A stretch of 64,000 nt of DNA from an uncultured bacterium (GTDB lineage: Bacteria > Cyanobacteriota > Vampirovibrionia > Gastranaerophilales > Gastranaerophilaceae), in the NCBI GenBank assembly GCA_949292185.1, contig CASEYP010000002.1, positions 46,142 to 110,141 of the forward strand, read 5' to 3'. Position numbers and translations under genes: made by a program. Below, piece by piece: positions 27,671 to 50,177 of the stretch. The notes under the pieces are model-generated. The model did no database searches, was not told the DNA's origin, and worked only from the letters and a program-made list of their open reading frames with translations. The first letter of the stretch is position 1. Each line of letters opens with the position of its first letter.

Positions 27671-28627
27671 ATGTATTTAGATTTTTATAATCCGATATCA
27701 TACAACACTGATGTTACAAGTCTCGTATATAACTACAACACAAGAAATATGGGATTATTTGGACAAAACTATTACTTCTTTGGCGGAAGTAATAATAATT
27801 CAATCTGGAATAATACAAATACCTGGTTTAGCGGATTTAACAGCATCTTTAACAATAACATGTTTGGTGGAAACAATATGTTTTTCGGGAATAATATGAC
27901 TTTCGGAAACAATTTCTTCGGCAATAACATGTTCTTCGGAAGTTCAAACCCATTTTCAAATATGAATACAGGTTCAGTTTGGATGTATCCAACCTATCAT
28001 TTTTATGGAACAGGCTCAAAAGGTAAAACTACCAGTTCATCTAGTTCTGCCAGTCCATCAAGTTCTATAAGTTCAACAAGTTCATCAACAAAAACATCCG
28101 AAGCTTCCCAAAAGCAAAAAGTAGAAGAAAAAGAAAAGACTCAAGCAAAAGTTCATAAACAAGAGGCTCACAAAACATCTATAGGAAAATCCTTAGCATA
28201 CGATGCAAGTAAATATCTTGGCTATAATGAAGCCGACGGCTCCTCTAAAAGATTTTCAGATAGCGGAGAATGGTGCGCAGACTTTGTGACTTTTGTTGTA
28301 AATGAAACATACGCTCAAAAAGGTCTAAAACCTCCTGCAGGGTTTGGCAACCACAGAGTTGAAAATCTAAAACAATGGGGCATAACAAACAACAAATATT
28401 TACCTATAGCAGGAAAATCAAATAAAGCGGACATAATCAAAAATCACGTCAAAATTGGTGATATAATGATACTTCGAGAAAACGGAGCATCTCATACCGG
28501 ATTTGTGTCTAAAATAAATGATGACGGATCATTTGAAACAATTGAAGGCAATAGAAATGATAAAGTTGTTAGACACACATACAGTCCAAACGACAATGAA
28601 CTTAGCGGATTTGTTCGAGTAGGGTGA
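27671..28627 (+). CDS. Leaderless CHAP-domain peptidoglycan hydrolase with N-terminal aromatic/Gly/Asn/Met-rich low-complexity region
   Basis: 318 aa. Residues ~27-100 are F/G/N/M-rich (NNMFGG NNMFFG NNMTFG NNFFG NNMFFG). Ser-rich linker at ~121-140. C-terminal CHAP domain (GEWCADFV Cys, ASHTGFV His, IEGN). Confidence 0.8.
   Translation: MYLDFYNPISYNTDVTSLVYNYNTRNMGLFGQNYYFFGGSNNNSIWNNTNTWFSGFNSIFNNNMFGGNNMFFGNNMTFGNNFFGNNMFFGSSNPFSNMNTGSVWMYPTYHFYGTGSKGKTTSSSSSASPSSSISSTSSSTKTSEASQKQKVEEKEKTQAKVHKQEAHKTSIGKSLAYDASKYLGYNEADGSSKRFSDSGEWCADFVTFVVNETYAQKGLKPPAGFGNHRVENLKQWGITNNKYLPIAGKSNKADIIKNHVKIGDIMILRENGASHTGFVSKINDDGSFETIEGNRNDKVVRHTYSPNDNELSGFVRVG
27851..27940 (+). repeat. In-frame degenerate ~18-nt tandem repeats encoding (NNMFFG)x5
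   Basis: aacaataacatgtttggtgga / aacaatatgtttttcggg / aataatatgactttcgga / aacaatttcttcggc / aataacatgttcttcgga. Confidence 0.8.
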
Positions 28628-47695: not shown

Positions 47696-48424
47696 ATGGG
47701 CAAAAAATCTAAATATCCGGAATATTCATCCGGTAGTGTTGAAATTAACGGGAATACAGTTGCTACTGCAACAAAAAAAGATGACAATACCATAAGTAGT
47801 TCATACAACATGTCTGATACCGAAAAGAATATTTATGATGGCATCCAAAATAATTTAGCATCATCACTCGGAAGTTTATTTGATATCTCAGACTCAACAC
47901 AAAAGCAATGGCAAAATCAATTGGAAGCCTATAAACAAGAAGGCATCGACCAAATAAACAGCATCTATACACCAATGGAAACTGCATTAAAAAATGATAT
48001 CGCATCCAGATTTGGGAACTTTGACAACTCAATATTTATGGATAATCTAAGCAACATAACAGATAACAAAGCCAAAGCAGTTGCAGATTTGAGTGATTCA
48101 CTTGTAATGAAACAAGATGAATTATATACAAATGAACTTGCAAACAGAATAAATTACGTAACTTTATTAAGCAATCTAAACACTACAATGAACAACAATA
48201 TTCTAAATTATATGCAATTAGCAGACTCCAATGCAAATTCCGGCAACAACTATAACGCAAATGCATATAATGCACAAAATTCAGGCTCATCATTTCTAAG
48301 CGGTATAGCAGACATAGGCTCAACAGCATTATCCTTTATAAATCCATTAGCAGGAGCTGCATCAAAGCTAGGAACTTCAGCCCTAAAAACATCCTACACA
48401 AGTAACGGAAGCTTATACGCATAA
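47696..48424 (+). CDS. Asn/Ser-rich helical protein, unknown function, no signal peptide
   Basis: 242 aa. GAAAGGAAA RBS and a TGTTATAAT extended -10-like element upstream. Confidence 0.6.
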   Translation: MGKKSKYPEYSSGSVEINGNTVATATKKDDNTISSSYNMSDTEKNIYDGIQNNLASSLGSLFDISDSTQKQWQNQLEAYKQEGIDQINSIYTPMETALKNDIASRFGNFDNSIFMDNLSNITDNKAKAVADLSDSLVMKQDELYTNELANRINYVTLLSNLNTTMNNNILNYMQLADSNANSGNNYNANAYNAQNSGSSFLSGIADIGSTALSFINPLAGAASKLGTSALKTSYTSNGSLYA

Positions 48425-48564
48425 GCACATACGCAAATAAACCAAATATAAAAAAATAAGCAGGGAGGTTAGAAAAATTTAACAACTCTGCTTATTTTTA
48501 TCCAAATACAAACTAAAGACCAAGAAGAAATATTAAGATTTGTTACGAAAAGAACAGTATATAA

Positions 48565-48595
48565 GCAATTATTTACAAGATATATACTTTATATA
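48565..48595 (+). promoter_or_regulatory. Regulon motif site: GCAATT-N13-ATACTTTATATA
   Basis: Exact match, ending 29 nt upstream of the ATG at 48625. Confidence 0.6.
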
Positions 48596-48605
48596 TATAA
48601 AGTAT
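48584..48605. promoter_or_regulatory. Perfect 22-bp palindrome built from the proximal motif half
   Basis: ATACTTTATATATATAAAGTAT equals its own reverse complement. Confidence 0.7.
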
Positions 48606-48624
48606 TAAATAAGAGGACAAAAAG

Positions 48625-49869
48625 ATGGGTATCTACGGAGCAGGCAAAGCCTTCAACTATGAATTTATACGAAGAGGACAGGTTTCAAGAAATCCAAAAA
48701 TCATCCAAAAACAACCCGCAAATGTAGTTTTTGGAGGACACTCAGTAACAAAGACCACAAATATAACTGTAAATAATGGTCCAACAGGTTTTTGGGGCTT
48801 TTTGGGTGGATTTATGAATAGCCTATTCGGCGGTGGATTAAGCTTTGGTGGATTCAATAGCTTTAGCAATTTTGGTATGGGTATGGGCATGGGTATGCCA
48901 ATGATGGCAAGTCCATTCGGAATGCTAAACCAAACACAAATGAATTCAAAAACACCAAAATCCGGAGATAGACTAAACGATTTAAAAACATTATATCCTG
49001 ATTGGAATATCGTATCAGATGGAAATGGCAATTATGATGCAACATCAAAAGATGGTACAGTGCATCACAAAGGCAATTTTGAACAAATGTGCGAATTATT
49101 AAAGAAAAGCTCTGAAGCAAAAGATCCACAAGGAAAAGATTCTGGAGCAAAAGTAGATGATGATGGTAAAGACTCAGGATCAGGTGCCGGCTCAGCTTCA
49201 GGTGCCGGCTCAGCTTCAGGTGCTGGCTCAGGCTCAGGTTCCGGTTCAGGATCCGGCTCTGGTTGGGATGCTGCAACTGCAAATGATTTAAAAGGATTTA
49301 CTGGAAATATCTCTGTTAATGACTTTGCTTCTGGTGGAGGCGCATCAATAAATGGAGCTACTGTATTATCAAAACCTGGTGAAAACACTCAAGGATTCCC
49401 TGCAAAAATAGCTGTCAAAGGATATCAATATGTATTTCAATCTGTAGACTCAGATGGTAAAGCAATTTACAAATCTATGAACGGTAAAGGCGACACATAT
49501 AAACTTGAAAAACAAGGTGATAGCTTCGGATTAAATCAACACGAAGGAGACAGTCTATCAGGTGTTGGAAGCATCGATATTGGAGGTGCAAGTTCAGCTG
49601 GTTCCGCAAGTAAAGCAAACAAAAGTTCTAAAACTCCAAATTCTAAACCGGTAAATGATAATAAAGAGATAAAAAGAAATAATGACGGATCCGTAACAGT
49701 AACAATAGGCGTTCCGTACAAAAATACAGGAACAGTAACTTTAAAACCATCAGAAATTAAAGGACTGAATGATGAACAAATAAAAGAATTGGCAGAAGAA
49801 AAAATAAAAGAACAAAAAACTCCAAAATTACAAGTTCCTAAATTTTCTAATTTTTCAAACATACAATAA
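48625..49869 (+). CDS. Leaderless protein: F/G/M-rich low-complexity N-terminus, (GAGSAS)/(GS) linker, unknown C-terminal domains
   Basis: 414 aa. Residues ~53-101 read GFWGFLGGFMNSLFGGGLSFGGFNSFSNFGMGMGMGMPMMASPFGM. Residues ~184-213 are a Gly/Ser/Ala linker. AAGAGGA RBS. Confidence 0.75.
   Translation: MGIYGAGKAFNYEFIRRGQVSRNPKIIQKQPANVVFGGHSVTKTTNITVNNGPTGFWGFLGGFMNSLFGGGLSFGGFNSFSNFGMGMGMGMPMMASPFGMLNQTQMNSKTPKSGDRLNDLKTLYPDWNIVSDGNGNYDATSKDGTVHHKGNFEQMCELLKKSSEAKDPQGKDSGAKVDDDGKDSGSGAGSASGAGSASGAGSGSGSGSGSGSGWDAATANDLKGFTGNISVNDFASGGGASINGATVLSKPGENTQGFPAKIAVKGYQYVFQSVDSDGKAIYKSMNGKGDTYKLEKQGDSFGLNQHEGDSLSGVGSIDIGGASSAGSASKANKSSKTPNSKPVNDNKEIKRNNDGSVTVTIGVPYKNTGTVTLKPSEIKGLNDEQIKELAEEKIKEQKTPKLQVPKFSNFSNIQ
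49183..49263 (+). repeat. 18-bp in-frame tandem repeat (GC-rich) encoding the GAGSAS/GSGS linker
   Basis: GGTGCCGGCTCAGCTTCA occurs twice perfectly (49183-49218), then GGTGCTGGCTCAGGCTCA and GS-coding degenerate copies. Confidence 0.85.
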
Positions 49870-49897
49870 ATAGAACATAATTATAAAGCTAACTAAT

Positions 49898-49925
49898 AAA
49901 AGGATGAATTTAAATTCATCCTTTT
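49898..49925 (+). terminator. Terminator of the 48625-49869 gene
   Basis: Palindrome AAAAGGATGAATTT / AAATTCATCCTTTT followed by a T-rich tail. Confidence 0.8.
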
Positions 49926-50015
49926 ATTTTGAATAAAGATTTCTAAACCAACAAAATGAACAATTAAAGAATCAAAAAATTTATCCCGAAAGACATAAAA
50001 AGAAGGGAGAAAATT

Positions 50016-50177
50016 ATGGCAAGAATTATTGAAGGTCAAAGACGTGTAATAAGATTAACGGTAGATGATGTTTTAAATATCGTAAGAGAATATCAAAAAT
50101 TAACACAAAAAAGCTGCTGCTACGAACACACAAGAGAAATTTTGTCAAAATCACCGATGTATTTGCCGGAAGACTAA
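50016..50177 (+). CDS. 53-aa hypothetical protein (unlisted small ORF)
   Basis: Own translation: MARIIEGQRRVIRLTVDDVLNIVREYQKLTQKSCCYEHTREILSKSPMYLPED. GAAGGGAG RBS 6 nt upstream. The listed 50026-50211 minus-strand ORF is antisense to it. Confidence 0.5.
   Translation: MARIIEGQRRVIRLTVDDVLNIVREYQKLTQKSCCYEHTREILSKSPMYLPED

Follow-up and report, generated by a model that had tools for sequence, protein, structure and literature searches.

The open reading frame at positions 48625-49869 of the window (the whole stretch of DNA analysed here, 64,000 nucleotides long, from a Gastranaerophilales genome of 1.89 Mb, 31% GC and 96.7% completeness) is a real, conserved and lineage-restricted member of a new modular protein family that has no public name. 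Family members share a head of about 166 residues, composed of a basic N-tail, a disordered charge-free segment with a GFWGF/Gly-zipper core and a small alpha/beta domain, and carry exchangeable tails behind it. The promoter of the head gene is common to this gene and to cell-wall enzymes without a signal peptide, and it is therefore probable, judging from sequence data, that the head protein acts at the cell envelope. The reading that we favor, with a probability of roughly 0.4, is that it is a disordered cohesive or interfacial envelope tether, which would display a variable tail after Sec-independent export.

Searches with the 414-aa protein retrieved 54 relatives in a word-indexed collection and, among 1.84 billion proteins, 92 cluster representatives at E≤1e-3, of which 40 reached E≤1e-10; none of these relatives is given a name in any source. 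The database matches nearly always begin at residue 1 of the hit, and the alignments place the family-defining part in the first ~166 residues. Nothing significant was found for the protein in profile searches of Pfam, NCBIfam, PHROG and PDB or, by tblastn, among phages, and the last ~200 residues, in which the first-pass annotation had recognized no domain, indeed have no match in Pfam, NCBIfam or PHROGs. Extending the search to 81 family members retrieved no Pfam domain, with nothing significant at lenient thresholds either; Choline_bind_3 was seen below threshold in one member only (P0053; E=0.021, 15.2 bits as compared to a cut-off of 27), and no CW_binding or Choline_bind repeats rose above threshold in the tails of the relatives. 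Across 201 sampled genomes of the order the head occurs in 30, including 22/26 in the genus of the window, 6/6 in a second genus and 1/32 in a third, and in this sample the family was found to be restricted to only two or three genera.

The head begins with the conserved sequence MGIYGxGKAFNLRY, with conservation of at least 90% at M1, G2, I3, Y4, G5, G7, K8, A9, F10 and N11. A second conserved block, TNVTINNGPxGFWGFMxGLxxGLFGGG, leads into an M/G/F stretch of variable length, followed by SPFGMLN and by a small domain of the form GDRLxDLKxxYPxWNIxSDGNGxYDAT…FDEMC. The motifs NGPxGFWGF…G and SPFGMLN are invariant in the family head, with G52, P53, G55, F56, W57, F59, G62 and N102 invariant in 47 sequences, and variation in the length and sequence of the Gly/Phe/Met segment is confined to the M/G/F stretch after the GFWGF core. 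It had been proposed that selection acts here on composition. Selection that disregards sequence is not supported, since conservation along the protein peaks at residues 45-71 (52-81% identity, as compared to 4-26% for the linkers). The head is also not absent or unconserved in orthologues, as the same annotation had considered possible, but is the conserved part by which the family is defined.

The richness of the head in Phe, Gly and Met is real (GFWGFLGGFMNSLFGGGLSFGGFNSFSNFGMGMGMGMPMMASPFGM, residues 55-100). In a genome-wide compositional scan its best 40-aa window contains 70% F+G+M, the top value among 3370 ORFs, with the two DnaJ proteins of the genome at ranks 4 and 6. Residues 53-101 (49 aa) contain four FG and four GF dipeptides, and the stretch from GFWGF to SPFG (23-44 residues) has no D, E, K or R in any of 52 members (52/52). 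The part before GFWGF carries on average 6.3 K/R versus 0.5 D/E in the family. The proposed parallel to the head of the CHAP protein encoded at 27671 was also borne out: the two heads are not alignable (BLASTP E=25) and their compositions correlate at r=0.65, as compared to about 0.05 for either head against the proteome.

We built an AlphaFold2 model of the 414-aa protein with 47 sequences (Table 1). Residues 1-113 have pLDDT values below 50, with a weak helix at residues 57-66 only, and low values over this region in two family members agree with the earlier suggestion that the head has no fixed fold. Three small modules, at residues 114-166, 212-310 and 345-400, are folded at pLDDT 81-87. 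The fold of the first was also predicted in P0019, a member with another tail type and an overall picture alike, and an HMM of this domain matches 32 head-family ORFs in other loci. Module A1 occurs solely inside head-family proteins and has no Foldseek match below E=0.3, and module A2 is limited to a few close homologues; for the two models, Foldseek retrieved no PDB structure below E=0.25 and no BFVD structure below 0.04.

Table 1. Coordinates of features in the window that relate to the head gene and its promoter class.
Feature	Position	Strand	Basis
CHAP hydrolase with N/F/G/M head, same promoter class	27671..28627	+	Pfam CHAP, E=1.4e-9
-35-like box GCAATT of the regulon promoter	48565..48570	+	fixed geometry GCAATT-N14-[AT]ACTTTATA
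-10-like box ATACTTTATATA (48584-48595) within a perfect 22-bp palindrome	48584..48605	+	motif match
Shine-Dalgarno AAGAGGA, 7 nt before ATG	48611..48617	+	direct sequence reading
ORF, 414 aa, unnamed 'GFWGF-head' family member	48625..49869	+	54 and 92 relatives
Basic, almost acid-free N-tail, residues 1-52 (MGIYGxGKAFNLRY … TNVTINNG)	48625..48780	+	charge counts, conservation
Charge-free Gly/Phe/Met segment, residues 53-102: PxGFWGF core, zipper, terminal SPFGMLN	48781..48930	+	invariant columns, pLDDT <50
Alpha-beta-beta-beta-alpha domain, residues 114-166, end of conserved head module	48964..49122	+	pLDDT 81-87
Hypervariable disordered spacer, residues 167-211, with (GAGSAS)n(GS)n after an acidic part	49123..49257	+	18-nt tandem repeat
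All-beta tail module A1, residues 212-310	49258..49554	+	pLDDT ~83
Beta-beta-beta-alpha tail module A2, residues 345-400	49657..49824	+	pLDDT ~85
15-bp-stem hairpin right after the stop codon, likely terminator	49895..49928	.	hairpin in sequence

At least three unrelated types of tail are swapped among the family members: the beta-module type found in the window protein, a GWYRA/helical plus beta-hairpin type, and a type with a duplicated ...GWTNVTL. No tail domain was found fused to any other N-terminus, including classical signal peptides. Several members with different tail types (P0007, P0009, P0019, P0046, P0050 and others) share the C-terminal peptide HPANNGKTHxGSRQPWL, which is absent from the window protein and from every other protein of its genome. 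The spacers in the family are of GS, PT, TD and STPG types, which are mainly known from extracellular stalks. In the window protein, the Gly/Ser linker noted earlier corresponds to the spacer GSGAGSASGAGSASGAGSGSGSGSGSGSG, encoded by an 18-nt tandem repeat (49173-49264), and the spacer is just 67% identical in a homologue with 94% identity over the whole protein. Head genes are tandemly duplicated, in two to four copies, in 9/34 loci.

Upstream of the head gene, GCAATT is followed after 14 nt by TACTTTATATA at 48585-48595, a geometry that reads as a -35 box GCAATT, a 17-nt spacer and a -10 box TTTATA. The first-pass annotation had placed this gene and the CHAP gene at 27671 under one promoter class. 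Both genes indeed carry the motif ATACTTTATATA, which has 10 matches in the window versus 2.3 expected; before the head gene each strand carries a match (48584 and 48594). At a score of at least 22, a position weight matrix (PWM) of GCAATT-N14-TACTTTATATA with fixed spacing retrieved 51 sites genome-wide, located 29-45 nt upstream of start codons, whereas three genomes simulated with a second-order Markov model yielded none. The motif was further found at a constant distance (the 43-nt PWM ends 21-26 nt before the ATG) in front of 34/47 head genes in 34 other genomes, or 36/47 when two over-extended ORFs are corrected; head genes of rumen lineages are among those that carry it, and in tandem arrays every copy has one. 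GCAATT-N14-TACTTTATATA is an order-wide promoter class. The word "leaderless", which had been applied to the head gene product, is correct for the protein, as it has no signal, but not for the mRNA, as shown by the Shine-Dalgarno sequence before the ATG; the 5' UTR is inferred to span ~22-25 nt. A terminator-like hairpin upstream of the gene (~48455-48500), together with the one downstream (Table 1), indicates that the head gene is monocistronic.

Of 1716 genes compared, 35 belong to the promoter set. Scanning the genome for charge-free stretches (at least 40 aa, at least 55% F/G/M/N/P/Y/W, leaving out transmembrane-like ones) retrieved six proteins: the head protein, a CHAP enzyme, an SLT transglycosylase (C31:173806-174705) and three proteins of unassigned function. 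All six (6/6) belong to the promoter class, in line with the "functional set" that had been suspected from the head gene and the 27671 gene. The 27671 CHAP protein has a promoter score of 47.9 and a charge-free stretch of 91 aa, and a second CHAP enzyme is likewise found in the promoter set. The three wall hydrolases of the set (CHAP, CHAP and SLT) have no signal peptide and must act outside the cytoplasm. In a crude scan, signal-peptide-like N-termini were seen in 0/28 of the strong promoter-set proteins as compared to 281/1692 of the others. The composition of the 20 N-terminal residues, examined for a T3SS-like bias, did not differ significantly between promoter-set proteins and the background; the sole enrichment in the set is a start of the form MG[ILFMV] (9/44 versus 34/1716). 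The charge-free segments are N-terminal in four of the six proteins and C-terminal in two, which argues against a simple N-terminal export tag; a functional module fits better. Three proteins encoded in the genome, each from the charge-free group, contain the pentapeptide [NS]PF[SG]M; as the pattern was defined once these had been seen, this result is descriptive.

Other members of the promoter set include a signal-less protein of 232 aa (C19:22181-22879) with a borderline match to PF03496 (ADP-ribosyltransferase exoenzyme; 23.1 bits, cut-off 23.4), as well as two proteins in which reading the sequence by eye revealed an HExxH motif (C20:46068) and a calpain-like DDCYLISA (C7:90030, 784 aa). 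In a rumen relative, the product of a gene adjoining a head-family gene is a protein of 229 aa whose head is rich in F/M/P and contains NPFM (L017:8193-8882, minus strand), and a strong promoter site (8940, score 37.8) lies upstream of it. At least ten paralogues of 350-700 aa start with MG[LMI][AS]ASQAR[LFW][LI]..TAR and have helical ends and variable middles; examples in the genome of the window are C2:115640-116692, C7:63257-65326, C9:44067-46178 and C31:67707-69194. Two of these paralogues are located ~6 kb upstream of the fliE-flhA operon, and shorter promoter-set proteins show the same N-terminal theme.

How the head protein might leave the cytoplasm was examined through its N-terminus. 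The claimed absence of a signal peptide was confirmed: on the Hessa scale, the insertion energy is +5.1 kcal/mol for the best 19-mer, as compared to -4.3 for the transmembrane helix of FliF from this genome. The head therefore does not qualify as a conventional signal anchor. A Sec signal peptide or signal anchor was rejected on these unfavorable energies and on the negative scan for signal-peptide-like N-termini. A Tat signal was rejected as well, the RR at residues 16-17 of the window protein standing against a consensus, AFNLRYAxxGQ, in which R13 alone is conserved. Reading the protein as a type IV pilin would place G-F at residues 55-56 and imply a 54-aa leader, with L or M at +5 and a Gly-rich stretch after it, and was dismissed (canonical pilins of related genomes read AFSLTELL); a double-glycine leader was rejected on motif grounds.

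Among the alternatives to the tether, the one that survives best, although we regard it as unlikely, is a bitopic inner-membrane protein, with the N-tail in the cytoplasm, the Gly-zipper acting as an oligomerising signal anchor inserted by Sec/YidC, and the tail in the periplasm. The charge pattern fits the positive-inside rule, the uncharged stretch is ~50 aa long, and the weak AlphaFold helix at residues 57-66 falls within it. In addition, the family consensus contains a GxxxGxxxGxxxG register at G58-G62-G66-G70, which in the window protein reads G58-G62-S66-G70. A transmembrane glycine zipper is described as a (G/A/S)xxxGxxxG register in a membrane-spanning helix (Kim et al. 2005, as cited in PMC5380434); the register is present in the head (58-62-66-70), but membrane insertion is not predicted and the helix is of low confidence. 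Indeed, the best 19-mer ranges from +2.9 to +6.6 kcal/mol across the head family, far from the -4.3 of the real transmembrane helix, and the heads of the CHAP and SLT proteins are less hydrophobic still (+12.5 and +7.5). The conserved residues, moreover, are contiguous (GFWGF) and do not lie along one helical face.

The same segment could instead serve inside the cell, as a scaffold whose FG-like head drives phase separation or gel formation and whose tails recruit clients; phase separation had already been raised in the first-pass annotation. Its disorder, lack of charge and FG/GF richness would suit such a role, as would the absence of an export signal and the resemblance in composition to the G/F regions of the two DnaJ (Hsp40) proteins. 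The flexible, Gly/Phe-rich region of DnaJ is indeed the nearest bacterial segment in the genome by composition; however, the head protein has no J domain, and its head is Met-rich and has a conserved motif of its own. We consider a cytoplasmic scaffold quite unlikely, since a segment of this kind is also carried by three peptidoglycan hydrolases, which have their substrate outside the cytoplasm, and since exchanged tails, tandem duplicates and GS/PT spacers are seen more typically in exposed proteins. The head also resembles the GLFG-type cohesive FG domains of nucleoporins, which are disordered and essentially uncharged and repeat F-G/G-F dipeptides among small polar residues; closer to them than the 48625 head is that of the CHAP protein, with its NNMFFGNN repeats. 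The likeness of the 48625 head in these sequence features does not extend to homology, and it differs in being bacterial, Met-rich, ~50 aa long and built around a single invariant GFWGF core.

For the envelope tether that we favor, the head would hold the protein in place by self-association and by association with the similar segments of the five co-regulated proteins, or alternatively would sit at the membrane interface. Low-complexity spacers would then hold out the small beta-rich tail modules, which appear to evolve fast and to be exchanged between lineages. We infer three elements of this model, namely a tail outside the cytoplasm, export that does not use Sec, and a head that is cohesive or interfacial. 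The conservation of the head while tails are swapped, and the presence of tandem copies each with its own promoter, were counted in favor of the tether, as were the disordered head next to confidently folded small modules, the charge pattern, the confinement of charge-free segments to the promoter set and the lack of signal-peptide-like N-termini there, the spacer types, and flagellar-type genes without a flagellin or T6SS. Counted against it were the C-terminal position of two charge-free segments, the N-terminal composition of promoter-set proteins, the lack of promoter sites next to export-apparatus genes, of holin families and of tail domains fused to signal peptides.

The candidate export route is a flagellar-type export gate. 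Genes of this type in the genome comprise fliE-fliF-(fliG-like)-fliH-flhA, fliP with its neighbors, and flgB/C with two rod-like genes, and the retained gate is the only signal-independent apparatus recognized in the genome. No flagellin was detected at 96.7% completeness, no T6SS or contractile-sheath genes were found, and there is one secretin. The head protein shares with flagellar and other type III substrates the lack of a signal peptide, ~110 disordered N-terminal residues, and the presence of an export gate in the genome. FlgJ consists of a disordered rod-binding N-terminus and a C-terminal wall hydrolase, and a FlgJ-like layout is shown by the CHAP and SLT proteins of the promoter set. 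Unlike flagellar substrates, however, the head protein has no Rod_binding or other flagellar domain, and its N-terminus is conserved in sequence, which typical T3SS signals are not; no chaperone was identified, and no promoter link to apparatus genes was found.

The alternative is a holin-type route. In holin/endolysin "type 10" secretion (PMC9527704, PMC10109510), as here, signal-less proteins are co-regulated with signal-less peptidoglycan hydrolases, and a further likeness is the co-regulation of small single-TM proteins with basic tails. The promoter set differs in that no holin family was matched among its small membrane proteins, its genes are dispersed and not arranged in a cassette, and no phage relative was found. 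FlhA is universal (present in 201/201 genomes of the order, so that co-occurrence is uninformative on a link between head and FlhA), no promoter sites were found adjoining the export-apparatus genes, and no holin family was matched, so that the export route is putative.

In most Gastranaerophilales, flagellar genes are reported to be retained only in part (PMC4040986), and a preprint postulates a role in secretion for the retained subset (10.64898/2026.04.24.720558). Across the order, we found matches to FlhA of two classes by score, ~870 and ~725 bits. The genome studied here has the 725-bit type (L035, C2:126393-131384); both classes are present in several genera (e.g. those of G110, G198 and G155), and non-flagellated genera have the 725-bit type only. 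The existence of two classes suggests that the "partial flagellum" may be a separate paralogous export system instead of a relic. Two additional stand-alone proteins, of 493 aa (L036, C19:138209-142240) and 285 aa (L037, C28:12325-15621), match the cytoplasmic domain of FlhA only, and the gene of the latter is ~700 nt downstream of a promoter-set gene encoding a G/Y/F-rich single-TM protein of 116 aa.

In its widest form, the tether model would extend to a lineage-specific signal-less "secretome" marked by charge-free segments with [NS]PF[SG]M, comprising wall hydrolases, the variable-tail family and enzyme-like proteins. These would be expressed from one promoter class and exported via the flagellar-type apparatus retained by non-flagellated Gastranaerophilaceae, with the head holding proteins in a cohesive envelope layer. 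The apparatus in question seems to be paralogous to true flagella, next to which it is found in some genera. This full scenario is, in our view, rather improbable.

The neighborhood of the head gene was also compared across genomes. Upstream lies a gene of 242 aa (47696-48424) whose product has no family match, is predicted from its sequence to be helical and ends in a weakly hydrophobic C-terminus rich in Gly/Ala/Ser. A separate sigma-70-like promoter (TTTACA-17-TGtTATAAT) serves this gene, and a terminator-like hairpin goes with it. Downstream is a 53-aa ORF (50016-50177), also without a family match, which is 68-77% identical among carriers of the head gene. The three genes stay together in close relatives despite rearranged flanks. 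A functional unit of the three was rejected, since the 242-aa gene is widespread without the other two: it is found in 37/60 genera of the bacterial family, and in eight other genera it adjoins mnmE with neither the head gene nor the 53-aa gene. The head genes of rumen lineages are at a different locus, beside miaB-like and mini-RNase III-like genes (assigned by sequence reading).

A polymorphic toxin or bacteriocin-like system, in which a glycine-zipper head would form pores or surface aggregates as do CdzC/CdzD and the tails would be toxic or targeting, is highly improbable: in its favor are C-termini that vary behind a conserved N-terminal module, genes in tandem arrays, a narrow and patchy distribution and a glycine zipper as in the surface-aggregating CdzC/D (PMC5380434), but a toxin domain was found in 0/81 members, no immunity-like gene varies with the tail (the 53-aa gene keeps its identity whatever the tail type), tandem copies abut with no ORFs between them, and no ABC/MFP exporter is adjacent. 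Of the features of polymorphic toxin systems, the family thus has the variable tails but neither a known toxin domain nor a tail-matched neighbor. The likeness to the Cdz proteins of Caulobacter, which remain as aggregates on the surface of the producer, lies in an extended GxxxG zipper within a charge-free hydrophobic stretch (PMC5380434). Unlike the head protein, these are ~85 aa long and have a type I secretion leader and neighboring ABC/MFP exporter and immunity genes, whereas the head protein has 414 aa and folded tails, without exporter or immunity neighbors.

The Gastranaerophilales are common uncultured gut bacteria for which hardly any cell biology has been described. Along with the CHAP and SLT enzymes, which likewise have no signal peptide, the head family suggests a group of co-regulated envelope proteins that have an unusual uncharged disordered segment and no recognized export signal. 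If this is true, these proteins would provide a handle on how proteins without Sec signals are delivered to the wall, and on the purpose of the retained "partial flagellum" genes. With a length of ~50 residues, the charge-free part of the head lends itself to direct biophysical study, and the fast-changing tails are candidates for contact with the host, with phage or with neighboring cells.
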